Shown: piece by piece, positions 39,801 to 59,406 of the stretch
How the letters are laid out: each line of letters starts with the position of its first letter
Numbering within the stretch: position 1 is the first letter of the stretch
From: Candidatus Woesearchaeota archaeon
GTDB taxonomy: Archaea; Nanobdellota; Nanobdellia; Woesearchaeales; SKGA01
Length of the DNA stretch: 64,000 nucleotides
NCBI GenBank assembly: GCA_021734105.1
Contig: JAIPJP010000002.1
Location: 582-64,581 of the forward strand
Direction of reading: 5' to 3'
Program-made: the position numbers and the translations under genes
Notes under the pieces: generated by a model
What the model saw: only the letters and a program-made list of their open reading frames with translations
The model's database searches: none
Told to the model about the DNA's origin: nothing

Positions 39801-42800
39801 CAGCGGGCTCAGAGCAAGTCGGTTGTTTTATTACCGAATCAGCCGCAGATTTTTACACTATTGGTGCTCTTAATAGCACTATGACAACACTTCTTACAAC
39901 AGAAGAAGTACTTCCAACTTACTCATCGCTATCAGGACCAACAACTGCACATAAAGGAGATGTTGTTGGACTTAATAGTTATTGGCAAGATAATTTCGGC
40001 CTTGACTTTGCAAACCTTTCAACAAACGCAACAGGAACCTTTGCAAATGCTAGTCGCTTAGAAATTTCAGGACTTGCTGACTGGGCAAATTTTAGTTATA
40101 CGATTCCGACATCAATGACCCCTGGGACTTTAGGATGGAAAGTACATGGTGTTGATACTTCAGGAAATGTGAACACTACTTATGTTTCAACTATAGCTGT
40201 CTGGGGATATTCTGAAATTGGCTCTTCAACACTTAGTCCTGCAAGTGTGCAAGAAGGCAATCCAACAACTATGGGTTGTCGAATTGTAGATGAGCAATCT
40301 CTTAGCGCACTTTCAAATTATAACGTTACTTTTTATTATCAAAACAAATCAAACCCTGGCTACATTTATCTGGGTTACAATCTAACCAATACGACAGGAT
40401 GGGCAAATTACAATTTCATACTTCCTAATGCATCAACCTATGATATTAAATGTAATATTACTGATGATGCAACGCAACAATACAACTCTTCAACACCATT
40501 TTTTGCAGTAAAAGAACTTAATGTTGTATCGAGCGCAGACGTATATCCGCCACTCATTATTAATGGAAATTATGGTATAAATGATACTGAACTTTATAGA
40601 GGACAATGTTTCATGGTCTATGGTGAATGGAACGAATCAATTAATGAATCTTGGATACAATACAATAACACACCAACAAACATCACTGAATTTAATGGCA
40701 CTGCACCATTCACTGCAAACTGGACAAACATATCTATTTGCACCAACAATACCTGGGTCCCAGGAGAATATACTGTCCAACTCTTTGCAAAAGACCAAGA
40801 AGGAAACCTTAACAACACGTTATCAACACTATCTTTTGAAGTAAAAGCACGAGCAAACCTTTCGTGGATAGGACCGATAGGCGACCTTAATAGAACAACA
40901 ATAAATTTGAGTTGTCAAGTACATGACTTTGATACAGGAGACCCTATCAGCGGATACACTGTTCGATTCTACGATGGAGATGAAGGAAGCACCTTAGGTA
41001 ATGTAGCAACTAACGCAAGCGGTGTTGCAACACTGGAATATGATTATACAATCATTAACTCAGGAAATCCAGTTAACGTAGGACCAGACGCACTTTCGTG
41101 TCAGATATTTGTATCAGCAGGCTATGAACTTGCAACCAGCTTTGTAGAAGAAACTGTCTACTTTTACGGCGACCTTGCTGCAAATATTACAACGCCAGTT
41201 TCAGGAGCAATTATGCACACAGGAGTTGCAGAATCATTAGTAGTTAATGCTGAAGATGAATTTGGTAACACAGTAAGGGATATTAATGGTAACGTAGCAA
41301 CCATAGATGCAACTTGGAAAAATAGCACGCAAACAACACTTGCAACGGGGGCTAGCACTACTTGGTCAATTCCTGCAACGTACGCAACAGGAGTAGAAAC
41401 CATCACAGTAAATATTACTGAGCCCTATTATCGATGGAACACTGATAGTGTTAATGTAAATATCTGGGGCTATGCAGATGTGACCATTTCAACACCTCCA
41501 GCAGGAACTTATGCGAATAATACGCCTTTGATGCTGACGTGTCGAGTAACTAACAGCGCAACAGGACAAGGAATAAACACGTACCCTATCGCATTTTATA
41601 ATGATTCAACACTTCTTACAACAACACCTGCAAACGCAACAGGCTATGCAACCTACACGATTAACACTAACACCATGCAAGAAGGAGACCGTGTTCTTCG
41701 ATGCGAAATTGATAACAACGCTCCACTTCTTTATAACAAAAGCAGCGCATATCAAAGTAATGTTAGCGTCATTGTAGATGCATCAGCACCCGTAATTATG
41801 TATACAGCAAGTAGTGATGCAAACAACACTTATAATAGAAACTGGATTTACGCGCGAGTACTTCTTACTGAACCAAACCTTGACACACTTTACTTAAATT
41901 GGAATGGAACAAACGAAACATTCACCGCAAGTGCAGGAAACGAATACTGGACAAACAAAACAGGACTTGGAGACGGAAACTATACGTACCTTGCTTGGGC
42001 AAACGACACTGCAGGAAACACAGGTCAATCACTTCTTCGAAAAGTAATTGTTGATACAACTTCTCCAGTTGTTACCATTTATTCTCCGCAAGAACAACCA
42101 TACAACGCAACAACACTTCTTATTAACTATACAGTAACTGATGCAAATGTTGACGCTTGCTGGTATAACCTTGATAATAACGCAACAACAAATAGTACTT
42201 TAACTGGATGTCAACTAGATAACTTAACGAGTCTAAGTGAAGGAAATCACAGCATCATAATATATGCAAATGACACTGCAGGAAACCTTGGACAAACAGC
42301 AATTAATTTCTCTGTAGATACTACCTTCCCAACAGTAAGCATCAGCCACCCAGTTAATACTTCATCTTACTTTGATGATAACGTACAAGACCTAAACTTT
42401 AGCACAGGAGACGACATTGCACTCGACTCTTGCTGGTACACCTTAGATAACGGCGCAGAAGCACCTATACCTGGCTGCGCAAATACCAGTATTTCTGGAT
42501 TAACCAATGAAAACCACACGTTAAGTGTTTTTGTTAACGACACAGCAGGAAACGTAAACAACGAAACAATTTGGTTTATTATTAACTTAAACAAACTTAT
42601 TCCTCTACCAGTAGCGCCAGAAAATAATTCTTATCTTAACAACCAAACCATTTATGTGAATGCAACAACAAATATTAACGCAACATCTTGTAATTACTCT
42701 ATTGATGACGGCGTACCAAGTAGTATGACTAACTCAACAAACCTTGATTGGTATGCACTCACGCCAGCTTTAACAGAAACATTCCATAATCTCACCTTCT

Positions 42801-45800
42801 ATTGTTGGAATGGTAGCGCAAATATTCAAACCGAATATCGATACTTTACTATTGATGTAACTGCTCCAGTAGTATCCTATGAATTACCTACTGATACTGA
42901 TGGTCTTGGTGTTGGACGAAACTGGACGCTTATTAATATTTCAACAAACGAACCAACAAACGTAGGTATCTTAGAATGGTATAACGGCGCAACCTATCAA
43001 AATTATACGATGAACAAAGCAAGTAACACTAGCTACTGGATAAATATGTCGGGACTAGCAGATGATACTTATTCGTATAGAGTCTTTGCAAACGATTCAG
43101 CAGATAACTTTGGCAACACCACGTCAAGAACAATTATTGTTGCAACAACCATTCCATATATTATGCTTACTTCCCCAGTTAACACAACCGAATACACGTC
43201 TAATCTACTTTGGCTTAATGCAACAGCAAGCAAACCGATTAGCACCTGGACGTTTGAACTTAATGAAGAGAACTACACCTTCACACCAGATATTATTTTC
43301 CCAGCAGAACTCTTTGAAAACAATTTAACTGTCTACGCAACAGACGCAGACAACAACACAGGAAAAATAACTATCGCATTCACTGTTAATAACACGGTAA
43401 CATGGACAGATACCTTCCAGACATACGCAGGACTTACAGCAGCAGAAAACTTAGCAGTAGATACCAACGCAAGTGTAGATTTTTGTTGGCCAGTTCTACG
43501 AAACGAAACTTTCTCTGCACAAAATAACATGGAAGCTTGTTGGCATTACCGTCAACCAGTATCAGTCACATCAACAACAACGTTAATAGATTATCAAACA
43601 GTATTGCACTTAAACATTAGCAGTTTGGTAAGTAGTAGTAAAGCAAATGCTGACTGTAGCGATTTACGATTTACCTATTATAATGAAACAACAAATCAAG
43701 ATGAACTCATTGATTACTTCTTAGATGATTGTAGTAATACTGACGATGTACAGGTATGGCTAAAATTACCTCTTATTAATTCATCATCAAAAGTGCACGT
43801 CTATTATGGAAATCCTCGCGCAGAAGACAAATCAAACGGAACTGCAATCTTTGAACTTTTTGAGCCATTTAATTCAGTAACGGTAGGAAACTGGGGAAGC
43901 AACGCAGCAAACTGGGCTAGCTCAAACGGCATTTCTTATCCAACAACATCTGGCGGTTCATCGCAAATTACTTCAACAACTGCAACATCCACTCAATATG
44001 CAATAGAACTAAAACTAGCAGGAAACTCAACATCGGGGTCTGCAGGACGATTCTTCTTTGGACGACCAGCAGGCGCAAACAAATACATGGGACTTTACAT
44101 CGACCCTCCAGGAAACAGAGTACGACTCTTTAACAACGCATATACTGATTATACTATTAATGCATCCGAACAAAATAAATACTCCTTAGTAGCAGACTTT
44201 GTTAACAACAACTATACCCTTCATGTCAATAACAGTGTTTCTCCACAAATAGAACTTTCCACTAGCGCAACAGGAAGCATTCCAAATCCAATTTTTTACT
44301 CTTACTATACACAAGGTCTTCTTTTAGACTACTACGCACTTCGTAAATATTCGCCAAACCATCCAACAGTAGGTAGTATGGGTGGAGAAGAAACACCAAT
44401 AACTAACGCGACCTTTAGAAGTAAACTTATCTCGCCAAACCCATTTGGCGCATGGGTTAATTTTATTGCTTCAGGAAATTTCCCTGCTGGAACGGACGTA
44501 ACATTCCAACTTCGAAATGCAACAGATGCAAATATTTGTGGTAATTTAACATATGCTCAAGTATCCGCAGGCTACGAGCCATGCATGAATGCAGCATTTT
44601 TTACAGATGTTTACCTTTGGGCGCAATTAGAAACAACAGCAACATTGAGCACACCTTATTTATTTAATTGGACGATAGAATGGAATACTTCTATGACTGA
44701 TAACATAGTTCCGCAAGTAACGGTGACTTCGCCTTTAGCAATTACGCAAAACCAATCAACATCAGTTCTGCTTCAAGCAACTGTTATTGACAATGTTAAT
44801 ATGAGTCACGTTTTTGCTAATGTTTCTTGGGATGCAGGAGTAAACTGGGAGAACATAGAACTTATCAAACAAGGAACAAGTAACACCTATAATGCAACAT
44901 TCACTAATACTAGCTTAATTGGTGTTTACAACGTAGCTTTCTTTGCAAATGATTCCCGAAATAATATTAATGATACAGAAACTGGCAATTTTACCATTCG
45001 AGACTCAGTGGGACCGACTATTAATTCTCATAACGCATCACCATCACCAACTGCATATGAATTAAACATTACTATTCTTGCAAACGTAACTGACAATCTT
45101 GGTGTTGGTGACGTTTTCGTAGAAATTGAAAACACTAACTATACTATGCAACCGCTTGGTGGTCAAGTATATAGTTATGAATTTAACACAACAGATTATG
45201 CAGCAGGAACCTATAATTACTATATTAATGCAAATGACACGAGCAATCCTACTAACTGGGCAATTGAACAAACAGGAAGCTTTACCATTGCTCAAGCAAC
45301 CAGCAACATATCGCTTTTTATTAATGGCACACAAGGAAACTACGAAACAAATCAAGACTATCAAATAAATCTCAGCGCAATCATTACCAAGCCATCGCCG
45401 ACAACAGACTATATTGCAATCTTTGTCAATGGCACATTATCGGCAAACGCATCAGGGACAGCAGAAAACATCACCAGCTTTACACCAGGAACATATAATA
45501 TCTCCGCATCTTATTTAGGAAACGAAAATTACACGAGCGCCAGTGTATGGTATACGTTAACTGTTAACGACACCGAAGCACCAATCATTAACAATTATAA
45601 TGCAACGCCAAACCTGACTGCATATAGAAACGAAATTACTATTTTTGCAAACATCACCGATAATATTCTTGTAGATACGGTACTTGTAGAAATCGTTGGT
45701 GTAAATTATAGTATGAATGGACCGCCAGGAGATATTTATAATTACACGTTTAACACAACTGATTATGCGGCTGGCTTTTACAATTATACTATTTGGGTTA

Positions 45801-48800
45801 ACGACACCGCAAATAATAGCGCAACAAAACAAACAGGCAACTTCACCATAATTCAAGTAACAAGTATTCTTGCACTCTATTTGAATGGCACGCAAGGTAA
45901 TGAAAATGCAACGACAGCAGACATTATTAACATTACTAGCGTGTTAACACTACCAGCAGGAACATCTGACTTTGTACAAATCTACAGAGAAGGTTTGCTT
46001 ATTGCAAATAGCAGCAGTCCAGCAGTAAATATTTCGCAGCAACCACTCGGTTATCATAATATCACAGCTGAATTCTTAGGTAATGTCAATTTCACAGGAA
46101 CTAGTGTGATGTGGTTCCTTAATATCACGGATGGCACCCCTCCAAGTATTAACTCCCACAATGCAACACCAAACAGTACCATTTACGGCAACAACATAAC
46201 GCTTTATGCAAACGTCACAGATAATGTTGCCGTTGATACTGTTTATTTTGAAATTAATGGCGTGAACCAATCAACAACGCCTGCTGGAGATATTTATAGT
46301 TATGAATTTAATACAACAGATTATGCTGTCGGATTCTACACGTATCGAGTACTGGCGAATGATTCATCAGATAATTTTGCAACACCACAAATAGGAAACT
46401 TCACTATTTTTCCGGCTACTAGCGAGCTTCATCTTTATTTGAATGGTACCGAAGATAATGTAAGCTTTGATGAGGACTTGTTGATTAATTTGACTGCTGA
46501 TTTGAGTGTTCCTGTTCTTGGTGAGAATGTTTGGATTTTGCTAGATGGTGTGAGTGTTGCTAATAGTTCTAGTCCTGCTGTAAATATTTCTGCTCATCAG
46601 CCTGGAGTCTATAATATTACCGCTGTGTATGCTGGCAATGAGAATTATTCTGGAACTCGTGTTACTTGGTTTATGACCATTAACGACACGACAAATCCAA
46701 ATGTAACTGCATTATTACCAACCACAGGATTTGTAATCAATGATTCTATGCCTATTCTTATTAGTGCGAATATAACTGATAATGTAAATGTAAGCAAAGT
46801 CTTTGCAAATGTAAGTTGGAATGGTATGTATAATTACATTGAATTAACAAGCACAAACAATTTAACGTATAATTACACGTTTACTAATACTTCCTGGGTA
46901 GGAAATTATGGTGTACTCTTCTTTGCAAATGATTCTGTCAATAATATTAACAATACAGAAACAACCTGGTTTAATGTTACGTTCTCAGATGATCAAGCAC
47001 CAAACATTACTAGTTTTAATGCAACTCCAAACGTAACCAGTTATGGTAACAATATCACTATTTATGCAAACGTGACTGACAATGTCGATGTGAGTGATGT
47101 ATTTGTAGAATTTGATGGTACGAATTACAGCATGACTAATGATAGTCTACCTGGAGTCGGTGGTTCAATTTATGGTTATAGATTCAATACAAGTAATTAT
47201 GCAGTAAACATTTATTCATTTAGAATTGTAGCAAATGACACAAACAAAACCCATCTTCTTACGGCAAACTTTACACAACTAACAACAGGCGATGCACTTA
47301 CTGGTCTTTTAAGTTATTGCGAACTACGCGAAAATAGTACGAATAATTGGTCATCACCAATAAAAATGTCTTATGATTCTGAAACAACAACCTATAGCGC
47401 AACACTACCTTCCCCTAAACAATATTGGTTTCAAATAACTTGTGTGGATACAAAACAGGAAACAAATTTATTTATTATTGGTGATGTAGATACTAGCAAA
47501 CCAAAACTCATTGATTTACCAACAAATGAATTGTTTATTGAGGATTTATATGAACCGGTTAATGATACTAATTCGCCAACAACAATCACCTATCAAACAA
47601 GCAATGGTAATTTTGTTTTAACAACAACAGAAGGTATCTTAGAAGAATTTGGCGTTACTGATACTTTGGCTCTTTTTTTTACTATACGTAATGTTAGCAG
47701 TAAACCGGTTGCTGTTGATTTGGCATTACCTTTTGCATTACCTAAAGGATTACATTTCTATTTATGGAAAGAAGTTAACGGTGAAACAATTGCTGTACCT
47801 TATGAAATTTCTTCTGATAGCAGAAGTCTGACGCTGATTTTACAAGATGGCGTTATTGATGAAGATGGACTTGTTAATGGCGTTATTGTTGATCCTTTAC
47901 AACTTATGTTACCTACCTACGATTTCTTTGTCTCAAAAACCAATACAACTAGTACACACGTAACGGTTGCTGAGCGAGAATTTTTCGTAACAACACCTAA
48001 AGGAGCATTGGAGTCCGTGGCATTGGTAGATCCCCTCAATCTGCCAAACTTGCCCGGTACTCCAAACTCCTTTACACATAAACTCGTGCGCTTCACAGCC
48101 GACACGCTTGGTGCTGAAGCGCTCGATGTTTATTTGACCTATGATGACTTACCAATAGAATTTGAACTATGGAAATTTAATTCTCAAACCATTGCATGGT
48201 ATGAGTTTCCTTACGAAAGAATTGATGAAAAAACTATTATGATAACTTTGTATGATGGCGGCTTAGGAGATGATGACGGAGAAGTTAATGGTATTATTGT
48301 TGATGATGTGGGCATAATTAGTTTAGGAACAGAACTGCGCATTGGCGATTTGAGTGACTCACAAACAGTTTATTCGAATGAACAAAATTATTTCTATGCT
48401 AATTATACGAACGCATCAGACGGTAGCGCAATTAACGACACTATTGGCTATTGCGAATTCACAGAAAATAGCACTGGTAGTTGGAGCGCACTTGTGAATA
48501 TGACGTATAATTATGAGAATGGATTGTATGAACTTAATAGAACAATAACGACAGGTACGCATATGTTTAATGTGAGTTGTTTTTCAACAGATGTACGTTA
48601 TCAAAACATAACGCTTAATGAAACATTCAATATAACGCTCTTTGTAGATGAAGCGCCAGTAATTGAAATACAACTACCTGCAGCAAACGTAGTGACTACA
48701 GTTCAAAATGTTAGTTTTTCCTGTGGATTTACTGATACACTTAACTTAGCAAACATTACACTTTACTTAACAAATGCAACAAACGAATCATTTGGTGTTA

Positions 48801-50518
48801 ACGATACAACGATTGTTAGCGGACTTTCCAATAGTTCCTCTTGGGAATACGCGCTAGATAGAGGAACATATACTTGGAATTGCCTTGCAGAAGACAATGC
48901 CTCGCAAGCAACAGGAGGAGTGAATAAAACAATATATGTGAATGAACCAGCAAACGCAACATACACAGGATTTAGTGGGAATACTACGGCATTTAACACC
49001 TATCCAACACCTGAAGCAATACTTGGCGCAACACTTGACGCACCTGGCGATGCACAAATAGAATGGAACGGTGTTGTGAATGCAAGTAATCAAGACTTCG
49101 ATAGTTTTGTTACGCTCGGACAAAATGTGGTGAGTGTAGATATTGGTGGATTAGATACTAGTTTTAACAGCAGTGCAAATGTCACGCTTCGAAATATTTC
49201 TTGGGCGTATCCAGTAGTTTATCGCAATGGTGTGCTTTGTACTGGTTGTGACGTACTGAGTTATGCAAATGATGTATTGGTCTTTAACGTCACAGGATTT
49301 TCATCTTATACAACCGGCGAAGGAACAAACCTGTCTATTTGGGATACCAGTGATAGTGTGGAAGTCTTTAACGACGAACAAAATATCTTTTATGCAAATT
49401 ACACCAACATTACAGATGGTAGTGCAATTACTGGTCTTGACGTATATTGCGAGTTCACAGAAAATAGCACGGGAACTTGGAGCGCACTTAATAATATGAC
49501 TTACAATATAACAAGTGGTCTTTATGAATATAATAAAACACTCCATGATGGTATTTCACAATTCAATGTAAGTTGTTATAATGATCAAAACTATGCAAAC
49601 CTATCGCTTGTTGATAGCGTGAATATCACTCGACGACCAACAAGAGAACTCCATATCCTTAACATTACGTACTCATCATCATCGCCAATTGAAGGAACAA
49701 GCGTCACAGTATATGTGAACGTTTCAAATACAGGAAATGAATCAGCAACAAATTTCACACTCGATGTAAATGTTTCCTTATGGAATGGAACAGCTGGCGT
49801 TTTTGATGAAACATTATCTCTTGTTAATCAAAATATTGCAGATGCAACAACAACACTGTTTGAACTTTCTTGGACGGCTCAACCAGGAACCTATATTTTT
49901 GATGCTTATGTTGATAGCGAGTTTAACGTAACAGAACTCAATGAAACCAATAACACGTTTAGTACTAATGTAACAGTTGATGCATGGGCATATCAACACG
50001 GAGAAATAAACCATACTGTTGTTTTAGGGGCGGGTACAAATGAAGTCTTGAACTGGTCAGATGACTCTGAAGACGGTTATGTCTTTTTTTATGATTATGA
50101 TTCTTCTATTAATCTTCTTGCGCTTGAAGCATTAGGAACAGGAAGCAATGATTTTATAGAAGCAGATGAGGCGCTAGGCATGACTGGATTTAGTGATTCT
50201 ATAGCTGAACTCTTTGATGCAGACGGTAATGATATAGCAGATAGCACAACAAGTGTTACGGTCTTTGGCACCACCTATAATGATGTGCCAACAACGCTCT
50301 CAACGAACTCCTCCTCTTCATTTACTACAGGAATAATGTGGGATGCAACAGGAGGGGGCGAATATGACGGTAGTCAAGACCTTGTCATCGTTGCAATAGT
50401 AAGCGCTACTACTGCCGGCGCTTATGGCACTTATGATTATGAGGTTCGCGTGCCTGCTTTACTTAAATCATGGAAAGGCAGCAACGACTTTTTTGCTTAC
50501 GCAACAGAATTCACCTAA
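27869..50518 (+). CDS. Giant multi-domain cell-surface glycoprotein (7,549 aa) with DUF2341-like + LamG-like modules, Ig-like tandem repeats and a CARDB-like domain
   Basis: Uninterrupted 22.6-kb ORF. Six modules at aa ~450, 860, 1220, 2070, 3070 and 5230 carry the DUF2341-type signature W.YR..I.I.N...L.DYQ....N.....CSD(V/I)RF.Y.N......E....E.....A.(F/I)WVK(V/I)P.......(L/I)Y.YYGN. Most are followed by a LamG/concanavalin-like segment (e.g. GIGAWGCANWDEFRMRPYT). A CARDB-like domain sits near the C-terminus (VSNTGNESATNFTLDV...LNETNNTFS). There are hundreds of N-x-S/T sequons. No C-terminal TM helix. Confidence 0.85.
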   Translation: MLFLATATVFSFTEQTSSETLSVHFPQLSERTLEITSQASNYTIENLTRNPIVFGKPVSWELLLSDGVQLFNVEYTTPPVVVASTQTNTATTWQKELTFSTNFTEGYANISYEDVLPHLTNFTITPPISYAIGYNNAISFTLPQLVLEETILLQASFLDTNNSIFNTTNTSPLININTSHTNQTVVVNHTFPTPQETLKTQQAKSKHGNFALTLAKGQIKKIAMADDFFLTVELENITQPENTTIDIELPKPVHKNIHLYLWYETPTGDFKSIPYIFSKNRKTLTLHLADLALAPRAGAMKFRLKVGLSDYAVSVNKKSAQEVDAVIDSKLVVFETAFADVQSFSIVDPENLPEVPQQAGEFTHKLLKFTLENLTQPNVTINLTFDDLPEDFQLWKFNANTGNWYTFPYTQLDANTLQITLVDGGLGDDDGIVNGIIVDDLGITLGWQNDSFDWRIAFNVTATSGSLVNYSTLVLLNNTVFNFSNAQDDLADLRIAYYNATADTETLVAHWVENYDQNFSSGSTAARVWFKALYLANNTNTTFFVYYGNPSASSTANGSDVFLYFDDFENGIGFDTGELSLVQNTSSAKTGTYGISGDGTETYDQAFNSGVNSGQDIVVESWVKSWDCDKSQDTSLAGVMVGHPTVGVDQDGYQAYLDERGSPYLGIRQDYDNGDVIASATSPITTFDTWYFHSFTWTTANELIFKLYDEDRSLLQTISATDATYTDGEFGIGAWGCANWDEFRMRPYTATEPTITFYSGSDFVGIANISIDRPVNESNQTRIQSFTMNGTLVCSRGQSCGNVSTYFQYYTTAAPTQSWFETSYTDFNDSDFENTYNISSSQNGFISLDVVNSGHEWWNVDWSNRMPLKISNVTANATAIPVKLIINSSMVGTSFDWTTDYNSSRFIWMNETSGLAQSADYWIEEWNTGAQNATIWVEIPYLEENTNTSLYLYYGNDAVTTLSDVDSVFLFYDDFSDGNDDGWTVRSGTWVVENNESYYQTTTLTTYLISEAGDSSWEDYTVETSINMTGFGGSTFFAGLLYRYQDTNNHYAVILDDRADDSIWLRQWIEGSYATEDQEWNDVNVDLNVFLPLRVDIFTNDAGTHTNRIHFDNTIKEYNYSAFGAGNIGLIAHNTQPRYDFVSVRKFTPSQLVVTNYSSEELNVSSNGEYYSNIYDFETEDVTFEKIYWTSSVPGQTSFSMHTRSSVGLAGAWYSADWPYQKEINISNTAGPLYEYQVFVQANLSTEYAAGKIQNNCSDVRFIYLNQTSLEQQEVNFFTDACDLTNEDIADFWVKVPFLKNGTITKLYLYYGNNSLPSASNIANTFTYTTNRTVGYVVSNMSARNGIRVTSLEDNNEIAVGSVGHQLNEFDNELVVGGSLTIGSAIKAKNLIQAEGNGDADDMIVPLSWAATHFVYEGMRSDNDTYCFVSPWGTAEVNLSETGVLQWTDNVTAAGVCYQADFASNTATTVDSSIPILAYHHGRDISQPPRDSWPFYPASTGPLYHPSRSNAIYIGVGENITTLTCYGSDGTSQTRSNVAAFGYTDCTSLSNGNSGSGAAAKIVSDYPIGAVQQADHDGTESTVFVPRKEMGTVFGAYHDAEYIALVSPYSGFDCDLYDSSGFDSTATFSTSSTEGVAKACFGCGSDATYITGPWKVVCEQPVWIYYEEDSDGDETNLFGYKQMRQYVYPAPTVAVELDELNYTYVSGNPDDFYQWSPWFLETDNTSISSPDNRYLQYRVTLSTTNSTKSPILDDVTLEYKIIANAWKNMKPSGTSFTANSPYSSLLNQTVNVTPSLAVTPQEVGTYLVRLLANSSSLSETFISENRSITINLQPAFSSFTTSSNLVARDGEITLSALFLDDVASPIKYYNVSFYDETGNGSRYFIGWAITDETGYATTTYTIPSDATYGTHILNVSYNGSTTNYINKAERTRTIKVSSSPVVHDVFTTPANFGYGFNISIQANITDGVGLDTVLVNITNESGQTETHEMTLLDGFYVYNFSQPWLKQNYNYTIIANNTDSVTTIATGNTFGLVVQSYVDIKTEKDAYRNNELVELSLTKGQWPEMEGWLYRLPVNITSEASLTDYQVQINLDSSNFRFSESNNGSDIRFTYYNTTTGNETNISHWTESYNATAQSATIWVNVPEISDTVQTKINLYYGNDNVNSSSNGTNTFIYFEDFDTTPFDWYNSPAGSGVVLDSTRAYSGTYSGHKIGGNDYRGAIEDVGTTFGRDVIMEFWVNRNAAFGGGQVDRIGFIEGTGDGYGWAFDHNADDILTDVRTNYGPATLNPTSTPDVMDEWVFGQFVVKASGVVEAYRYVDGTLLGSMATTSSTHNAFNRVYIFGGYDYWVDDIRIRKTSDTAFLTTSFGTEEVDALGLINEENTKFKGDLKMIVQRWTGSAWQNLNPPVIEDDEQILDTYEVVDLASIWDAAGAWNTTTRAPGTYRIYAIMEDSSNNLLENIDGTYIVGSANFTIKESEVRLVNLTYENEFEQGLLAYETGDVIDWINATVQAFENIAYDANATLSLLDSSKSSVGWGPQSETKLCGDLLENQTCEQQWNNASNGYIIPTDAASGTYTFYWDVLSTSENGQEYSNNSISFAVHNIPQTANTSLSQTRVYKPNSTIFNVTFTNLWNENLSGVSANINCPAFSGFTCQNLTPTTFSSIENETDFTIQFNVSANESVPSNDYNLTVELNYTNPGGETKSWNATANTLLEVRLAGILVITDYLHPITVTRNNNANFYAYMNNSGDTIATNAWLNYTFPTGWTVTTGNQDESFASIPINGVVWNNITAQPGINALLGSRTIRLDSNADDGRNDFKQYTVTVYANTSLSLTKNLSIVNRGEHIGLTGTLTYDNGTPVTNRWIYFYDETENTYLGANQTNALGQATLAYYINSSSTLSLHTLNASFNGTTSLYLRPTATTTSIDVHEKPQFSNVLISPNLSGYGSNVYINSTVTDIDVFDEIDTVWAIITYPDASTQRVNLTNVPPDDFYYIFNETWELGNYAVTLYANDTTGAQNNSNSYSFSVNASLLLSMQTAQNSYSQNEEVNLSDGGLTSWWNTDWPYRIAITAENTAENLTDYQLFIRRNLGTAYTNGNIQADCSDVRFTYYNTTAQTEQEITFYTDYCSLTSINNADFWAKIPFMQNATNTTVYLYYGNNQATDASNLTATFTYDSPKTIGYVVGEDHVSNGLEIMSYVASNEVNVGASTYTLGEFGTQTVSSGLSLATEIQAKDAVQIEGAGADDDIIAPVSWASTEFIFGGMRSNDRFCMLSPWGSASVTIYDGGSSDWSGTVTSSGTCQTVDISNGNAARVVSDIPILVVKTSTNSRDAYTFYPATTDDIYGGSASNAVFIASGPSVTAVSCIGADATSGSTSIPANDEYDCGADVTTGDSGSGTAVKVVSDYKIGAIQQADHDGTESTVLVPTKEFGTVFGSGLDAQYIAVVSLTQNNNCSIYTSGGLFDWDISTGTSALSQACFGCNSDSVFVSGPWKMECEQPVWAYYEDDNDHETNMLSYKQLRQYVHPEPSLTYSSEQSRGSKVYNQQTNTHKGYVLLTVQENSTGSWNHVATISNDTSTLRSIPATGLDLATIWNSVSWNTGTIAAGTYRAYGALQDDQGTTLTNYDSSEITGDWEFILEAPDLHLAIDDLRIYDVTETAQANWRIYTGDLIGSGLNNSHTLYKDDIYRIEVDVENIGSTTWTINDTTINYSNFNQNWTINETDYIWYSTLATIANRRADTSKLSGNFTDTITWDISSNQGTVAAGDVATFFFIINMSEEDTKGIRFRIEHPDFDISDYSTLESIIFTVNAPALYNDIYNFTDTKVIRGDNTTLYARWDKTIGEANFTYNVVTPVGYATYQNTTPANTKNWSNYTINTGSTWFLGNHSAKIIVEDQSGNTNTSLPYLTFGVWGHAQPTSIQLNTSNIAVGDNVSIQCRITDATNGNSVIAGYNVSFTNGTDTLGWNTTSATGWAVFNYHDLTAGSEQVGCFITESAADFYTIGALNSTMTTLLTTEEVLPTYSSLSGPTTAHKGDVVGLNSYWQDNFGLDFANLSTNATGTFANASRLEISGLADWANFSYTIPTSMTPGTLGWKVHGVDTSGNVNTTYVSTIAVWGYSEIGSSTLSPASVQEGNPTTMGCRIVDEQSLSALSNYNVTFYYQNKSNPGYIYLGYNLTNTTGWANYNFILPNASTYDIKCNITDDATQQYNSSTPFFAVKELNVVSSADVYPPLIINGNYGINDTELYRGQCFMVYGEWNESINESWIQYNNTPTNITEFNGTAPFTANWTNISICTNNTWVPGEYTVQLFAKDQEGNLNNTLSTLSFEVKARANLSWIGPIGDLNRTTINLSCQVHDFDTGDPISGYTVRFYDGDEGSTLGNVATNASGVATLEYDYTIINSGNPVNVGPDALSCQIFVSAGYELATSFVEETVYFYGDLAANITTPVSGAIMHTGVAESLVVNAEDEFGNTVRDINGNVATIDATWKNSTQTTLATGASTTWSIPATYATGVETITVNITEPYYRWNTDSVNVNIWGYADVTISTPPAGTYANNTPLMLTCRVTNSATGQGINTYPIAFYNDSTLLTTTPANATGYATYTINTNTMQEGDRVLRCEIDNNAPLLYNKSSAYQSNVSVIVDASAPVIMYTASSDANNTYNRNWIYARVLLTEPNLDTLYLNWNGTNETFTASAGNEYWTNKTGLGDGNYTYLAWANDTAGNTGQSLLRKVIVDTTSPVVTIYSPQEQPYNATTLLINYTVTDANVDACWYNLDNNATTNSTLTGCQLDNLTSLSEGNHSIIIYANDTAGNLGQTAINFSVDTTFPTVSISHPVNTSSYFDDNVQDLNFSTGDDIALDSCWYTLDNGAEAPIPGCANTSISGLTNENHTLSVFVNDTAGNVNNETIWFIINLNKLIPLPVAPENNSYLNNQTIYVNATTNINATSCNYSIDDGVPSSMTNSTNLDWYALTPALTETFHNLTFYCWNGSANIQTEYRYFTIDVTAPVVSYELPTDTDGLGVGRNWTLINISTNEPTNVGILEWYNGATYQNYTMNKASNTSYWINMSGLADDTYSYRVFANDSADNFGNTTSRTIIVATTIPYIMLTSPVNTTEYTSNLLWLNATASKPISTWTFELNEENYTFTPDIIFPAELFENNLTVYATDADNNTGKITIAFTVNNTVTWTDTFQTYAGLTAAENLAVDTNASVDFCWPVLRNETFSAQNNMEACWHYRQPVSVTSTTTLIDYQTVLHLNISSLVSSSKANADCSDLRFTYYNETTNQDELIDYFLDDCSNTDDVQVWLKLPLINSSSKVHVYYGNPRAEDKSNGTAIFELFEPFNSVTVGNWGSNAANWASSNGISYPTTSGGSSQITSTTATSTQYAIELKLAGNSTSGSAGRFFFGRPAGANKYMGLYIDPPGNRVRLFNNAYTDYTINASEQNKYSLVADFVNNNYTLHVNNSVSPQIELSTSATGSIPNPIFYSYYTQGLLLDYYALRKYSPNHPTVGSMGGEETPITNATFRSKLISPNPFGAWVNFIASGNFPAGTDVTFQLRNATDANICGNLTYAQVSAGYEPCMNAAFFTDVYLWAQLETTATLSTPYLFNWTIEWNTSMTDNIVPQVTVTSPLAITQNQSTSVLLQATVIDNVNMSHVFANVSWDAGVNWENIELIKQGTSNTYNATFTNTSLIGVYNVAFFANDSRNNINDTETGNFTIRDSVGPTINSHNASPSPTAYELNITILANVTDNLGVGDVFVEIENTNYTMQPLGGQVYSYEFNTTDYAAGTYNYYINANDTSNPTNWAIEQTGSFTIAQATSNISLFINGTQGNYETNQDYQINLSAIITKPSPTTDYIAIFVNGTLSANASGTAENITSFTPGTYNISASYLGNENYTSASVWYTLTVNDTEAPIINNYNATPNLTAYRNEITIFANITDNILVDTVLVEIVGVNYSMNGPPGDIYNYTFNTTDYAAGFYNYTIWVNDTANNSATKQTGNFTIIQVTSILALYLNGTQGNENATTADIINITSVLTLPAGTSDFVQIYREGLLIANSSSPAVNISQQPLGYHNITAEFLGNVNFTGTSVMWFLNITDGTPPSINSHNATPNSTIYGNNITLYANVTDNVAVDTVYFEINGVNQSTTPAGDIYSYEFNTTDYAVGFYTYRVLANDSSDNFATPQIGNFTIFPATSELHLYLNGTEDNVSFDEDLLINLTADLSVPVLGENVWILLDGVSVANSSSPAVNISAHQPGVYNITAVYAGNENYSGTRVTWFMTINDTTNPNVTALLPTTGFVINDSMPILISANITDNVNVSKVFANVSWNGMYNYIELTSTNNLTYNYTFTNTSWVGNYGVLFFANDSVNNINNTETTWFNVTFSDDQAPNITSFNATPNVTSYGNNITIYANVTDNVDVSDVFVEFDGTNYSMTNDSLPGVGGSIYGYRFNTSNYAVNIYSFRIVANDTNKTHLLTANFTQLTTGDALTGLLSYCELRENSTNNWSSPIKMSYDSETTTYSATLPSPKQYWFQITCVDTKQETNLFIIGDVDTSKPKLIDLPTNELFIEDLYEPVNDTNSPTTITYQTSNGNFVLTTTEGILEEFGVTDTLALFFTIRNVSSKPVAVDLALPFALPKGLHFYLWKEVNGETIAVPYEISSDSRSLTLILQDGVIDEDGLVNGVIVDPLQLMLPTYDFFVSKTNTTSTHVTVAEREFFVTTPKGALESVALVDPLNLPNLPGTPNSFTHKLVRFTADTLGAEALDVYLTYDDLPIEFELWKFNSQTIAWYEFPYERIDEKTIMITLYDGGLGDDDGEVNGIIVDDVGIISLGTELRIGDLSDSQTVYSNEQNYFYANYTNASDGSAINDTIGYCEFTENSTGSWSALVNMTYNYENGLYELNRTITTGTHMFNVSCFSTDVRYQNITLNETFNITLFVDEAPVIEIQLPAANVVTTVQNVSFSCGFTDTLNLANITLYLTNATNESFGVNDTTIVSGLSNSSSWEYALDRGTYTWNCLAEDNASQATGGVNKTIYVNEPANATYTGFSGNTTAFNTYPTPEAILGATLDAPGDAQIEWNGVVNASNQDFDSFVTLGQNVVSVDIGGLDTSFNSSANVTLRNISWAYPVVYRNGVLCTGCDVLSYANDVLVFNVTGFSSYTTGEGTNLSIWDTSDSVEVFNDEQNIFYANYTNITDGSAITGLDVYCEFTENSTGTWSALNNMTYNITSGLYEYNKTLHDGISQFNVSCYNDQNYANLSLVDSVNITRRPTRELHILNITYSSSSPIEGTSVTVYVNVSNTGNESATNFTLDVNVSLWNGTAGVFDETLSLVNQNIADATTTLFELSWTAQPGTYIFDAYVDSEFNVTELNETNNTFSTNVTVDAWAYQHGEINHTVVLGAGTNEVLNWSDDSEDGYVFFYDYDSSINLLALEALGTGSNDFIEADEALGMTGFSDSIAELFDADGNDIADSTTSVTVFGTTYNDVPTTLSTNSSSSFTTGIMWDATGGGEYDGSQDLVIVAIVSATTAGAYGTYDYEVRVPALLKSWKGSNDFFAYATEFT

Positions 50519-54160: not shown

Positions 54161-55156
54161 ATGCGCATAAAAGAAACCTGTGAAGATTTTCTTGTAGAAG
54201 AATTAATAGATACATCGCTTGTTAGTCAAGACTCTACTGCATATCATCTTTACAAACTTAAGAAAACAAACTATACAACCGAGCGAGCAGTACAACACAT
54301 CGCAAGAGCCCTACATCTTCCAAGAAAATTTATAGGTTATGCAGGGGCAAAAGATAAACGCGCAGTAACCACCCAATATATTACCACAAAAGGAGTGAAA
54401 AAAGATAACGTTTTAAGTCTTGAATTAAAAGATATTGCGCTAGAGTTTGTCGGATATGCAACTGAGCAACTCACCCTGGGAAAATTATCTGGCAATACAT
54501 TCACGATTAATGTACAAGAACCAGATTTTATTCCAGCAGTAATTCCTGAAACATTTGTTGTACCTAATTATTTTGACGAACAACGATTTTCAAGTAATAA
54601 TGCAGCAATAGGAAAAGCAATCTTAAAAAAAGAATTTAAAGCAGCAGCAGAACTCATCATTGGAAGCGATACTGATTATGGTAGTATACTTGTTCACTAT
54701 TTGCAAAACCACGAAAGTGATTATGTGGGTGCTATTCATAGACTCCCTAAAAAAATACTCCTTTTTTATGTGCACGCCGTGCAAAGTCTTTTGTTTAATG
54801 AATTACTTGCAAAAGAAATTAAAGACGGATTTAACGTACCCTATTCGCAAGGAATTTTTTTGTTCTCAAAAAACTTATTAGAGCCAACACCGCAAACACT
54901 TCCACTTATAGGTTATGATTCAGAATTAACAACAAAACAAGAAGAACTTCTTACTCTTCACGGCTTGGATAGACGAAATTTCATTGTTAAACAATTTCCA
55001 GAACTAACATTGGCAGGTGATAGTCGAGCAACAACAATACAGGTCACTTATTGTAAAGTATTACAACAAGAAAAACAACATATAACTATTGCGTTTACGC
55101 TGCCGAAAGGAGCCTACGCAACAATAGTACTTAAACAGCTTTTTGCCAGTCGATAA
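54161..55156 (+). CDS. truD: tRNA pseudouridine(13) synthase TruD (archaeal)
   Basis: TruD catalytic block YAGAKDKRAVTTQYIT (GxKDxxAxTxQ). N-terminal MRIKETCEDFLVEE. Size 331 aa. Confidence 0.75.
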   Translation: MRIKETCEDFLVEELIDTSLVSQDSTAYHLYKLKKTNYTTERAVQHIARALHLPRKFIGYAGAKDKRAVTTQYITTKGVKKDNVLSLELKDIALEFVGYATEQLTLGKLSGNTFTINVQEPDFIPAVIPETFVVPNYFDEQRFSSNNAAIGKAILKKEFKAAAELIIGSDTDYGSILVHYLQNHESDYVGAIHRLPKKILLFYVHAVQSLLFNELLAKEIKDGFNVPYSQGIFLFSKNLLEPTPQTLPLIGYDSELTTKQEELLTLHGLDRRNFIVKQFPELTLAGDSRATTIQVTYCKVLQQEKQHITIAFTLPKGAYATIVLKQLFASR

Positions 55157-56013: not shown

Positions 56014-59000
56014 TTATTTTTTTGCGAAGAATTTTTGAATTTGTTCTTGATAATGATTTACTGATACTTTCATCTTCCACGTCTTTGGAAAGCAGCGATA
56101 ATACTGAGGCCATGTGAAACGTTCATCAAGAAACACAATAACGCCCCTGTCTGTTTCGCTTCTAATACAGCGCCCAGCACTTTGAATAATTTTGTTAAAG
56201 GCTGGAAACACATAGCCGTAATCCCAGCCTTTACTGAATTTTTTATCATAATACTCAATTAATGCTTTAGTTTCAAGGTCAGGTCTGCCTAAAGGAAGAC
56301 CCACAACGACAACACCTTTAAGCTCCTCGCCTGGAAGATCAATACCTTCACTAAAACTACCTCCCACAACAGCTAAAAGACACGCGCCGGTGAGTTGTTG
56401 GCGACGAAACGAGAGAATAACTTCCTCTTTTTCTTGCTTACTCATATCTTGATACTCATGCAGCATCGCTTTTTCTACTTTAGAAAGATAGGTATCAATA
56501 GCATCTTTCATTTGGTAACTAGGGAAAAAAACAGCTATATTACCAGGCACTTCATTAATAACACTAGTAAGGATTTTTGCTATTTCCTGATATTGCCCCT
56601 CATTTCTTGTTGTGTATTTAGTGCTTGTTTTTGCAATAATAAGATTAAGACTGTTTTTTTCAGGAAAAGGAGACGGATAGGTTTCCTCTACAGTTCCTGG
56701 AGGAAAACCCAAAAGCTCACTATACATTTTTGTTGGTGTGAGCGTTCCACTCATCAAAATAGTGCTACTAGCCTTTAACACAACTTCTTTAGCAATAATA
56801 CTTGGATCAAGACAACGATAACTCAGCGTAATATTTTCTTGATTATACGCTCGTTTCTTACTAATAATGCGAGTAAAACCATCATCTTTACCTATCCAAC
56901 TATCAAGAAAATCAGCAACAGCTCCAAGAGAGGATAATTTTTGTTCTTCGCGAATGTTATCGGCAATTTTGTACAATTCTTCAGTTAAAGGAATAAGAGA
57001 AGTTATTTTTTCTGCTTGGAGTGTGAATGTTTCTTGAGAAACAAATTTTTCATCATCACTACCTTTCATAAGATCACGCAATAATTTTGCAAATTGACCC
57101 ATCACATGTTCAATAGCTAGATGTCCAAATTTTTTAGCTTCACTTGCAGCGCGCTTGAGTAAAACAAGCGAGAGATTCGCAGTTGCTAAATCTTTAATAC
57201 GATTAGGTAAATTATGTGCTTCATCAACAATAATAATGGCGTTTTCTAATTCTTTTTTATTCTTTTTAAGAAATGTTTCTCGAATGCGAGGATGAAAAAG
57301 ATAATAATAATCAGCAATAATAACGTGCGCCTTTGCAGCCATAAGAAGCGCGATTTCATAAGGACAAACTTTATACTCTTTACCTGTTTTCATGGTTTCT
57401 TCAACAACACTAGGACCCATTTGCTCCATTTCAGCAAGTGCGAGTCGAGCGTTAGGCGTTAATTGTTCTCCTCGTTTTAAGTTTTCATAAAACTCGCAGC
57501 GTTTATCTTCTCGAAGTGTACGACAATACTCATTAAACTCGCCAGTTGGCAAAGTCGTTACCCCTGGTTGCAAACACATCCATTTTTTACCAACGATATC
57601 TGCTCCCGAAAGCTCGATATTATGTCGTTTTCTTATTGCTTGCAAAGTTTCAATAGCAATTTTATGTTGCGTATTTTTAGAAGTGAGAAAAAAGATTGTT
57701 TTGCCTTTGTCAAGTGCTTGCGAAAGAACTGGCGCGATACTTGCAGCAGTATTATGGAGGATGATGCCATTTCCAATAAAGTTTTTAGTTAGGGGGATTG
57801 AGGCATCATAAACGAAATCTTTCTTGGTTTTTTTTATTTTAACTATTTTATCCCAAAAAATATTTGAATTCGCAAGTTCTTTTAATTTATTAAACGATTC
57901 GCTTGTTTTATCTGTTTTTTTCTTAAAATAGCGCACTGTTTTTTTGAGTCCTTCCTTTGACGGATTTCTTTGATTGTATAAATAACTTTCAATAATTCGA
58001 TATTCTTTTTCTCTTGAATAAGGTATTTGTAGCTCTTCTTTACACTTTTTGATTAGTGAATTAATTTCAGGGATTATGTTAATATTGGTGTTATTTTCTT
58101 TTTTAATTAATTCGTTTAATCGTTCTTGTTTATATTTGATTCTAAGCTTTATTTGTGCATGAAATTTCTTATTATTCTCCGTATCGCAAGTATAAATTCT
58201 GAAATACTTTTTATTTTTAACATATTTTTCTTTAATAATTGGATAAATATCTAAAGCTAGGAGTGCATGAAGAAGACTGTTTTTCAAATTCTCACTTTTT
58301 GTACATAATTCAATAGTTGTATTGTCAAAAATAGATCCGTTTGTATCGTAAATTCCAGCAATTACTTCTTTTAATAATTCCTTGTTTTTAAAAAATATGT
58401 TTGGAATTGAAACTTTGCTTGTTTTATTTGAAGTTGGAAAACCAAGACTAAATAGTAAACTTATTAATGGTTTATTTTCAAAATAATAATCTATATCCGA
58501 ACCTGTTTTTTTTCTTATATTTGATTTTGTTTCTTTGGCTATTTCTTTGAATGTTGATAAAATTTCTTTGTCTTTTGTACTTAAGTTTATTGCCTTACGT
58601 TTTCCAGAATCAATGAATCCATCACCAATTATTAATCCGACAAAATAGGCAAATTTTTTATCGATATGGGGAATTATTCTGTGATTGATTCCCATTCTTC
58701 CAATTTCTTCAACTCTGAAATATTTAGGATGGATATTTATTAAATGAATTATTTTTCTGATGTCTTTAATCTGTATGACTTGTTGTTTGGCTATTTTCTT
58801 TATTTTATCTTGTGAGATCCCAGAACTTTTTGATATATCTTTAAACGTTAAATTATTTTGTTGTTTGAATTTTAAAAGCTCCCCACTAATAAGGGGTTTT
58901 GTTTTTATGGTGGTTTTATCTAAATAATTATTTTTTAATTTTAGATATTGATCTAGTTTTATGTCGATCTTATCTTCTAGTATGTTTAGTTTGGATGGTG

Positions 59001-59406
59001 ATGCAATGTATCCTTCTTCTTTAAGATCTTTTAACTTGATCCATTCTGTTTTTCCATTTTTAATTGAGAAAAATTTATGATCGTCAGTAACTTCTATTTC
59101 CCTACCTGTTTTTGTAGTTAATTTATACAGTTGACTCTTTTTTTTCTTTATTATTTGTCCTTGCTTTACTTGTATTTTGAGGTTTTTATCAAGGCTATTG
59201 GTTTTAATCTGTTTTAAGTATATATCTTCTATTTTTTCAAGACCGTCTTGAGTTAAAATTAAAGTATCTTTGCCAACGCATTTACCAAGACCAGTTGGTG
59301 CATGGATGACTATGTTATTTTTGTTTTCTACTTCCTTTGCAATGAGTTGTACCATATCTTTTTGAATAGGTCGAGCAGACTCGTGAGGAAAAAGAATTGT
59401 AGACAT
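56014..59406 (-). CDS. XPD/Rad3-family (DinG-like) ATP-dependent DNA helicase precursor containing a ~510-aa intein inserted in the Walker A P-loop
   Basis: Extein reads ...HAPTGLGK|TAASIAPVLS... across the intein. Downstream are the 4Fe-4S-type Cys region, DEAH box (IIVDEAHNL), and helicase motifs III–VI (…SGTLTP…, VVGGSFSEGIDLPG, QSAGRCIRSETDRGVIVFLDERF). Extein is about 620 aa. Confidence 0.9.
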   Translation of the reverse strand: MSTILFPHESARPIQKDMVQLIAKEVENKNNIVIHAPTGLGKCVGKDTLILTQDGLEKIEDIYLKQIKTNSLDKNLKIQVKQGQIIKKKKSQLYKLTTKTGREIEVTDDHKFFSIKNGKTEWIKLKDLKEEGYIASPSKLNILEDKIDIKLDQYLKLKNNYLDKTTIKTKPLISGELLKFKQQNNLTFKDISKSSGISQDKIKKIAKQQVIQIKDIRKIIHLINIHPKYFRVEEIGRMGINHRIIPHIDKKFAYFVGLIIGDGFIDSGKRKAINLSTKDKEILSTFKEIAKETKSNIRKKTGSDIDYYFENKPLISLLFSLGFPTSNKTSKVSIPNIFFKNKELLKEVIAGIYDTNGSIFDNTTIELCTKSENLKNSLLHALLALDIYPIIKEKYVKNKKYFRIYTCDTENNKKFHAQIKLRIKYKQERLNELIKKENNTNINIIPEINSLIKKCKEELQIPYSREKEYRIIESYLYNQRNPSKEGLKKTVRYFKKKTDKTSESFNKLKELANSNIFWDKIVKIKKTKKDFVYDASIPLTKNFIGNGIILHNTAASIAPVLSQALDKGKTIFFLTSKNTQHKIAIETLQAIRKRHNIELSGADIVGKKWMCLQPGVTTLPTGEFNEYCRTLREDKRCEFYENLKRGEQLTPNARLALAEMEQMGPSVVEETMKTGKEYKVCPYEIALLMAAKAHVIIADYYYLFHPRIRETFLKKNKKELENAIIIVDEAHNLPNRIKDLATANLSLVLLKRAASEAKKFGHLAIEHVMGQFAKLLRDLMKGSDDEKFVSQETFTLQAEKITSLIPLTEELYKIADNIREEQKLSSLGAVADFLDSWIGKDDGFTRIISKKRAYNQENITLSYRCLDPSIIAKEVVLKASSTILMSGTLTPTKMYSELLGFPPGTVEETYPSPFPEKNSLNLIIAKTSTKYTTRNEGQYQEIAKILTSVINEVPGNIAVFFPSYQMKDAIDTYLSKVEKAMLHEYQDMSKQEKEEVILSFRRQQLTGACLLAVVGGSFSEGIDLPGEELKGVVVVGLPLGRPDLETKALIEYYDKKFSKGWDYGYVFPAFNKIIQSAGRCIRSETDRGVIVFLDERFTWPQYYRCFPKTWKMKVSVNHYQEQIQKFFAKK
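57751..59280 (-). mobile_element. Intein with LAGLIDADG homing-endonuclease domain (about 510 aa) within the XPD helicase gene
   Basis: Begins CVGKDTLILTQDG (Cys1, block A) directly after GLGK. Ends ...FIGNGIILHN followed by extein Thr+1. Two LAGLIDADG motifs: FVGLIIGDGFID and LKEVIAGIYDTNGSI. Coordinates derived from residue positions 43–552 of the track ORF. Confidence 0.8.

Follow-up and report, generated by a model that had tools for sequence, protein, structure and literature searches.

A probable class-1 intein with a probably impaired LAGLIDADG endonuclease in the Walker A loop of a woesearchaeal XPD/Rad3 helicase

The stretch of DNA analysed here (the window) consists of 64,000 nucleotides from a Candidatus Woesearchaeota archaeon (assembly GCA_021734105.1, contig JAIPJP010000002.1, positions 582 to 64,581). 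A single long orf (open reading frame) on its minus strand, 56014..59406, encodes a protein of 1130 amino acids (aa) with the public record MCF7798381.1 (K9M74_00595), labelled by NCBI as a 'hypothetical protein' of Candidatus Woesearchaeota archaeon. This protein is very probably the precursor of an XPD/Rad3 helicase in which a class-1 intein with a nested double-motif LAGLIDADG endonuclease, the latter probably crippled, lies in frame at the GLGK/T bond of the Walker A loop (a slash marks the splice junction throughout). The intein occupies 57751..59280 on the minus strand and extends for 510 aa from Cys1 to His509-Asn510; it was delimited with PF14890, TIGR01445, TIGR01443, an AlphaFold model and Foldseek. 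That it is a bona fide intein in an XPD Walker A loop can be stated with high confidence.

The insertion point and the host helicase

The N-extein (59281..59406, minus strand, aa 1-42) ends with HAPTGLGK, the first part of the Walker A motif, and the C-extein (56014..57750, minus strand) begins with Thr+1 (TAASIAP) and contains four cysteines, VDEAHN, HBB and Helicase_C_2. The insert is exactly residues 43-552 of the precursor, with GLGK/C at aa 42/43 and HN/T at aa 552/553; the N-terminal junction reads NIVIHAPTGLGK followed by CVGKDTLIL, and the C-terminal junction reads NFIGNGIILHN/TAASIAPV. The junction codons are TGC (Cys1) at 59278-59280, CATAAT (His-Asn) at 57751-57756 and ACT (Thr+1) at 57748-57750, which reproduces exactly the coordinates, the 510-aa length, the initial Cys, the terminal His-Asn and the Thr+1 that had been proposed in an earlier note on this DNA, made from the sequence alone. 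Removal of the insert restores HAPTGLGK/TAAS in frame, the split lying between the Lys and the Thr of Walker A, and the spliced extein is 620 aa long, in agreement with the earlier estimate of about 620 aa. The probability of 510 stop-free codons arising by chance at the composition of the insert is about 6e-22; therefore, the insert is not a chance orf.

The host had been named as an XPD/Rad3 helicase, and the profile searches bear this out: it scores 265.3 bits against the NCBIfam model TIGR00604 (rad3; cut-off 246.95), and the Pfam domains DEAD_2 (PF06733), HBB (PF06777, the arch domain) and Helicase_C_2 (PF13307) were found in the flanks of the insert. The extein keeps GLGK/T, the four cysteines of the 4Fe-4S iron-sulphur (Fe-S) domain, the DEAH box and the C-terminal helicase domain. 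In the numbering of the spliced protein, the Fe-S cysteines are C101, C118, C127 and C171, between Walker A and VDEAHN (217).

A search with the spliced 620-aa extein found 2925 relatives, of which the best 120 (83-50% identity) all have the intein-free length of 605-706 aa; their named sources are mostly Woesearchaeota, Nanobdellota or Nanoarchaeota. All eight orthologue sequences that were read contain HAPTGLGKTAAS uninterrupted, the same as the spliced window sequence, and the same four cysteine contexts. The closest orthologues, P0001 (83%) and P0002 (78%), are intein-free and have the gene order of the window, an order (RNase HII, transglutaminase, two small genes, nitroreductase, XPD, adenylate kinase, TruD) that the window has in common with loci L001 and L004. 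The empty site of L001 differs from the spliced window sequence by one of the 36 nucleotides around the junction. The intein-free orthologues and the two syntenic empty-site loci (L001 and L004) thus confirm the proposed division of the P-loop between Lys and Thr. The few orthologues that do carry an insert have it bounded by Cys...HN/T or HN/S; a homologous insert without such boundaries, which the earlier note had named as the sign of a lineage-specific domain, was not among them.

Modules and catalytic residues of the intein

Pfam Intein_splicing (PF14890) matches intein aa 8-510 with E=1e-27, and the NCBIfam models intein_Nterm (TIGR01445) and intein_Cterm (TIGR01443) match with E=5e-14 and E=5e-4; a sequence search of the PDB with the insert returned the CDC21, DnaB and VMA inteins and PI-PkoII. 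The HINT fold and its blocks A, B, F and G were all found in the insert, and its lobes are rich in beta structure in the AlphaFold model. The N-terminal HINT lobe (58987..59280, minus strand, intein aa 1-98) contains block A (CVGKDTLIL) and block B (T65-D-D-H68, approximately 59077-59088), and the C-terminal lobe (57751..57864, minus strand, intein aa 473-510) contains block F (VYDAS, with Asp492) and block G (GIILHN). The comparison with intein hidden Markov models that the earlier note had suggested as a check accordingly recovered, through Pfam and NCBIfam, the four blocks together with a two-motif LAGLIDADG domain.

The residues needed for class-1 splicing are all present: Cys1, Thr65, His68, Asp492, His509 and Asn510, with Thr as the +1 nucleophile. 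When residues were counted in the related domains of the 150 best representative proteins, Thr was found at the T65 position in 183/195 and His at the H68 position in 145/195, while the C-terminal consensus was stricter (D492 in 209/212, H509 in 207/208, N510 in 205/205). The ratio of nonsynonymous to synonymous substitution rates (dN/dS) of the extein against the intein-free L001 orthologue is 0.10, the same value as between the two intein-free orthologues, although it is approximate because dS between the compared exteins is saturated (1.3-1.7). With all splicing residues present and the extein under the same purifying selection as its intein-free orthologues, the insert is expected to splice, and to do so efficiently, since an insert left in place would split the P-loop; an intact P-loop would thereby be restored. 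Cys1 would attack the Lys-Cys peptide bond after translation, Thr+1 would then take over the N-extein, and cyclisation of Asn510 would accompany the joining of the exteins, which gives a helicase of 620 aa whose GLGKT P-loop is intact.

An AlphaFold model of the intein built with a 22-row alignment of related inteins reached a pLDDT of 92.2 and a pTM of 0.91; a model from the single sequence (pLDDT 38) was discarded. The top Foldseek matches in the PDB were TliVMA (7qss, 5e-22), PI-PkoII (2cw7, 2e-21) and PI-PfuI (1dq3, 1e-18), followed by PhoVMA and then PI-SceI, and the endonuclease domain alone matched I-DmoI and I-Tsp061I. Besides HINT and the endonuclease, the model contains two helical accessory domains, which account for the unusual length of the intein. 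The first (58681..58986, minus strand, intein aa 99-200), recognised from the AlphaFold secondary structure, resembles a helix-turn-helix (HTH) domain (LTFKDISKSSGISQDKIKKIA), and its match to Pfam HTH_19 is weak (E=0.005) and does not pass the cut-off; in the alignment it is kept in the closest relatives and missing from a 430-aa XPD intein of Micrarchaeota. The second (57865..58092, minus strand, intein aa 397-472) consists of four helices, has NPN.D.IP and NPSR as conserved motifs, and is found throughout the family and also in related inteins of MCM and SMC. Accessory domains that resemble HTH have been described for TliVMA and PI-TkoII (PMC8966425).

The LAGLIDADG homing-endonuclease domain (58093..58680, minus strand, intein aa 201-396) was delimited by PF14528, by PDB alignments with TliVMA and PI-PfuI and by Foldseek; Pfam LAGLIDADG_3 (PF14528) matches it in two stretches with E=1e-14. 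The two LAGLIDADG motifs named in the earlier note were located at intein aa 215-221 (GLIIGDG) and aa 308-315 (AGIYDTNG). In the model, helices span aa 208-220 and aa 300-313, with beta strands after each of them. Helix 1 (58618..58659, minus strand; KKFAYFVGLIIGDG) keeps the catalytic Asp220 (GAT, 58621-58623). Helix 2 (58336..58383, minus strand; KELLKEVIAGIYDTNG) ends with DTNG, and Asn314 (AAC, 58339-58341), at the second catalytic Asp/Glu position, aligns with the Glu of FDAEG in PI-PfuI and with an Asp of TliVMA. In the related domains, the helix-1 catalytic column is D or E in 184/191 and the Asn314 column in 191/199 (96%), with Asn in 4/199; all five family members readable at the second motif (P0121, P0123, P0247, L029 and L079) have D[TS]DG or DTDG. 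In each LAGLIDADG helix, the residue that binds the metal is D or E (PMC6294521), and such a residue ends helix 1 of the window intein but not helix 2. By its sequence and modelled fold, the element thus has the ancestry and architecture of the LAGLIDADG family but an incomplete catalytic site.

In monomeric LAGLIDADG enzymes, each half cuts one strand, and in many of them both active sites appear to use the same metal ion (PMC3017599). In the PhoVMA intein, the LAGLIDADG aspartates are missing and the endonuclease is inactive, and restoring them rescues activity (PMC8966425). The endonuclease of the window intein is therefore probably impaired: the window copy is most likely unable to make a normal double-strand break, and its endonuclease may be inactive, a DNA-binding protein only, or a weak nickase. 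One A-to-G substitution would be enough to bring Asp back at position 314, so that the loss of the catalytic residue may be evolutionarily recent. The earlier note had considered an active or only recently degenerated endonuclease plausible and had asked whether the catalytic acids are conserved; degeneration is the alternative now favoured and activity the one disfavoured, because the second acid, unlike the first, is replaced.

The proposal that the endonuclease is nonetheless fully active despite Asn314 and that the intein is homing actively through Woesearchaeota populations is unlikely. It would fit the intact 510-codon orf, the confident fold of both LAGLIDADG helices and both accessory domains, the retention of Asp220, and the existence of relatives at 78-83% identity with a nearly identical empty target, that is, of susceptible alleles; the few related domains that also have Asn at the second catalytic position are a further point for it. 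Set against these are the near-universal acid at that position, unanimous among the five readable family members, the lost aspartates that explain the inactivity of PhoVMA (PMC8966425), and the base composition of the intein, which has been adjusted towards that of the host and so points to long residence instead of recent spread. Another possibility, itself rather improbable, starts from the loss of cleavage: a folded DNA-binding scaffold and two HTH-like domains have been kept, and the element may have ceased to be wholly selfish and be a retained, possibly regulatory module that makes splicing and helicase activation conditional on DNA binding or stress, or else a natural nickase whose homing relies on gene conversion induced by nicks.

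Related inteins, base composition and neighbouring sequence

An exhaustive HMMER search of 1.84 billion representative proteins with the intein gave 2510 matches, mostly inteins of MCM, SMC/Rad50-like and VirB11-like ATPases. An earlier word-index protein search with the intein alone had yielded 8000 candidates, none of them significant, probably because Lys/Asn-rich words swamped the selection. Inteins in the P-loop of XPD were found in a woesearchaeal locus (P0177 and P0123, on L008; 41% and 55% identity in two halves, with frameshifts in intein and extein), in P0144 (a fragment with the N-terminal part only), in P0204 of Aenigmatarchaeota (a fragment), in the metagenome contigs L079, L064 and L017 (L079 and L064 being from one 'BRINE' dataset), and in P0247 of Micrarchaeota, whose 430-aa intein lacks accessory domain 1 and has Ser at +1. 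The XPD intein of L079 is 500 aa long and 35% identical to that of the window. The best full-length match (P0121, E=4e-112, 39% identity) lies on a metagenome contig in an Lhr-like helicase, at APAGTGK/C...HN/TE, and a further Lhr-like helicase on a metagenome contig (L029) carries an intein of 40% identity at APTGLGK/C...HN/TE. These Lhr-type inteins are the closest full-length relatives and have the same four-module layout and Walker A location as the window intein, from which they differ in the family of the host helicase.

A neighbour-joining (NJ) bootstrap tree grouped the inteins as (L079_XPD,((L029_Lhr,P0121_Lhr),(window_XPD,L008_XPD))), with supports of 98, 97 and 100, and placed this clade well apart from the MCM and SMC inteins; it was built by a simple distance method from few, divergent sequences (31-55% identical). 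The nesting of the Lhr copies among the XPD copies indicates that a single clade of inteins has switched between the two families of helicase. The Walker A stretches of the XPD and Lhr hosts are nearly identical at the protein level, and the XPD/Lhr inteins, as read from their sequences, appear to be a tangible example of an element that changes hosts between analogous sites. The copies can be arranged by stage: both catalytic acids are present in L079, L029, P0121 and P0247, one is lost in the window, and L008 is frameshifted. The presence and absence of the intein among close relatives and the host switch in the tree would be compatible with past homing.

The closest XPD relative (L008:3165-6510 of GCA_016179945.1, JACPCE010000024.1, Candidatus Woesearchaeota) has been called as three genes. 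One of its frameshifts is at the remnant of LAGLIDADG helix 1 (DFNLLIIIEMI and a stop) and the other in the Fe-S domain of the extein, so that it is either a decaying XPD-plus-intein pseudogene or the product of assembly errors. Among the Lhr-type genes, the called product of L010:2726-4606 (P0121) stops 66 residues past the intein although the contig continues, and approximately 5040-9630 of L029 is an unbroken frame of 1528 aa with the sister intein in its Walker A. A 1379-aa ATPase (P0122) has two window-related inteins, one of them after the P-loop-like GSRGSGK with Ser at +1; 38% identity was found to the endonuclease and C-terminal part, and in the NJ tree they branch off immediately outside the XPD/Lhr clade, at a weakly supported node.

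A metagenome scan for APTGLGK/C gave 85 matches, about the rough chance expectation, most of them in short orfs without helicase or intein sequence; approximately 20 are true intein junctions, of which three are XPD-type, one is Lhr-type and the rest belong to phage or other helicases. Other helicases with the Walker A sequences APTGFGK or APTGLGK and a Cys-initiated intein at the same Lys/+1 position occur in many metagenomic and viral contigs (L014, L018, L025, L028, L037, L047, L051, L055, L060, L074 and L106-L109), which makes the GK/T or GK/S bond of superfamily 2 (SF2) helicases a recurrent intein site well beyond XPD. In the viral contigs, no carrier of the window intein family was found; the matches there were confined to distant HINT sequences of giant viruses and to P-loop inteins of phage helicases. 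Among contigs of species-representative genomes, a limited two-sequence pattern, which does not amount to a census, found three distant bacterial inteins and no close relative, and a junction-profile search missed known members (the window protein, P0123 and P0247) and was unusable for counting XPD inteins.

P-loop inteins with LAGLIDADG domains are classic, with VMA-b, DnaB-b, MCM-a and RFC as examples (PMC4760082, PMC8966425). XPD, which the earlier note had called an uncommon host, does not appear in the list of the 15 leading archaeal intein hosts given by a survey of 2015 (PMC4760082). A literature search that covered this survey without its supplements, and not InBase, found no description of an XPD or Rad3 intein. 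Inteins have been recorded in aLhr2 helicases as RecA1 or RecA2 insertions, mostly in RecA2, the single RecA1 case being that of Natrialba magadii (PMC8301817). The DnaB-b, MCM-a and RFC inteins likewise interrupt the Walker A of a nucleic-acid-dependent ATPase, with Thr or Ser at +1, and many MCM and SMC inteins have the endonuclease and accessory domain 2 of the window intein at 23-32% identity; unlike XPD, DnaB, MCM and RFC are common and well-catalogued hosts (PMC4760082).

The closest structural parallels are TliVMA (7qss) and PhoVMA (7qst), which have the same combination of HINT, nested LAGLIDADG and helical HTH-like accessory domain and are also inserted in a Walker A P-loop (the VMA-b site of the archaeal A-ATPase A subunit; PMC8966425). 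Among the structural matches TliVMA ranks first, with a TM-score of 0.76 normalised to the target at the E-value given above, and its sequence match has E=3e-9. The host of TliVMA and PhoVMA is an ATPase, whereas that of the window intein is an SF2 helicase; identity is only about 21%, and the 510-aa window intein is longer than TliVMA (429 aa) and PhoVMA (376 aa) and has one more accessory domain, placed between its HINT N-lobe and its endonuclease. For an endonuclease put out of action by the loss of its LAGLIDADG aspartates, PhoVMA provides the precedent; the window intein has lost one catalytic residue, not both. PI-PkoII, a documented active endonuclease, gave the highest TM-score normalised to the query (0.68, at 17% identity); unlike the window intein, its host is a family-B DNA polymerase and its site is not a P-loop. 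PI-PkoII/PI-TkoII (2cw7, from the Thermococcus kodakarensis DNA polymerase) is likewise large and consists of four modules: HINT, endonuclease, accessory domain and 'domain IV' (PMC8966425).

The earlier note had described the intein as very rich in Lys and Asn, and its composition is indeed 17.5% Lys and 7.3% Asn, with 13.5% Ile as well. Its GC content is 26.1% and that of the extein 36.8%. Each of the six family members examined has an intein poorer in GC than its extein, and intein GC tracks that of the host (intein/extein 0.215/0.30, 0.26/0.37, 0.34/0.39, 0.35/0.39, 0.36/0.52 and 0.47/0.62). Low GC as a mark of recent transfer was considered and rejected for this reason, and the GC trough in the window is a property of the intein family and of long residence.

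Elsewhere in the window, a single orf (27869..50518, plus strand) of 7549 aa takes up a third of its length; the first 4900 aa contain five DUF2341 repeats, NPCBM_assoc and bacterial Ig-like domains, and the giant protein is probably surface-exposed. The TruD (plus strand) and adenylate kinase (minus strand) orfs converge with an overlap of 26 nucleotides at 55131..55156, which is the same in L001 and L004. Scans of the 64-kb window for tRNA and Rfam families found no tRNA, rRNA or Rfam family at the gathering threshold.

Remaining alternatives and significance

That the insert is a lineage-specific XPD domain or a domesticated regulatory module that is never spliced out is highly improbable. 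Its 510 codons stay open even though the endonuclease has lost a catalytic residue, and a DNA helicase could in principle make use of two HTH-like modules that bind DNA. On the other hand, a Walker A Lys parted from its Thr would abolish ATP binding, the splicing residues are all present and at consensus, and the same element occurs in the non-orthologous helicase Lhr. Orthologues at 83% identity in the same neighbourhood are without the insert, and this presence/absence polymorphism at a precise point of Walker A argues against such a domain. An assembly or binning artefact, in which a chimeric contig joins an intein-bearing fragment to an XPD gene, is scarcely credible: the source is a metagenome-assembled genome and the GC content of the insert is 10 points below that of its flanks, but the frame is continuous across both junctions, which fall exactly on canonical residues, the same architecture is present in independent assemblies of other samples (L008, L009, L079, L017 and L064), and GC below that of the extein is a family-wide property.

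A class-1 intein with a crippled endonuclease remains the preferred explanation. Several points weigh against it, besides the saturated dS and the simple distance tree mentioned above. Splicing and cleavage status have both been read from residues and conservation. An Asn at a metal site sometimes still ligates the metal, and four natural relatives also have Asn at the second catalytic position, so that some residual activity or nicking is conceivable. The L008 intein is in a frameshift-broken gene, which implies that XPD is not indispensable in every lineage.

In the proposed explanation, the element would be one of a small clade of inteins that, in DPANN archaea, target the sequence coding for APTGLGK/T in SF2 helicases of both the XPD and the Lhr type. 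Homing mediated by the endonuclease presumably brought the element in, and it would now be kept mainly because imprecise loss would destroy an important P-loop.

Mechanistically, the finding is ordinary and leaves the current understanding of inteins unchanged; its interest lies in the unusual host, the apparent XPD-Lhr host switch and the loss of one catalytic residue. For annotation, the 'hypothetical' 1130-aa record can be read as an XPD/Rad3 repair helicase with an intein. Several related records are mis-split or unnamed, and P0247 is publicly named only 'helicase C-terminal domain-containing protein', so that inteins seem to defeat the automatic naming of their host helicases. The family could be of practical use as a small group of related endonuclease scaffolds that target P-loops and have HTH accessory domains of modular build. 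With the woesearchaeal protein, XPD is added to the P-loop ATPases that have been invaded by inteins.

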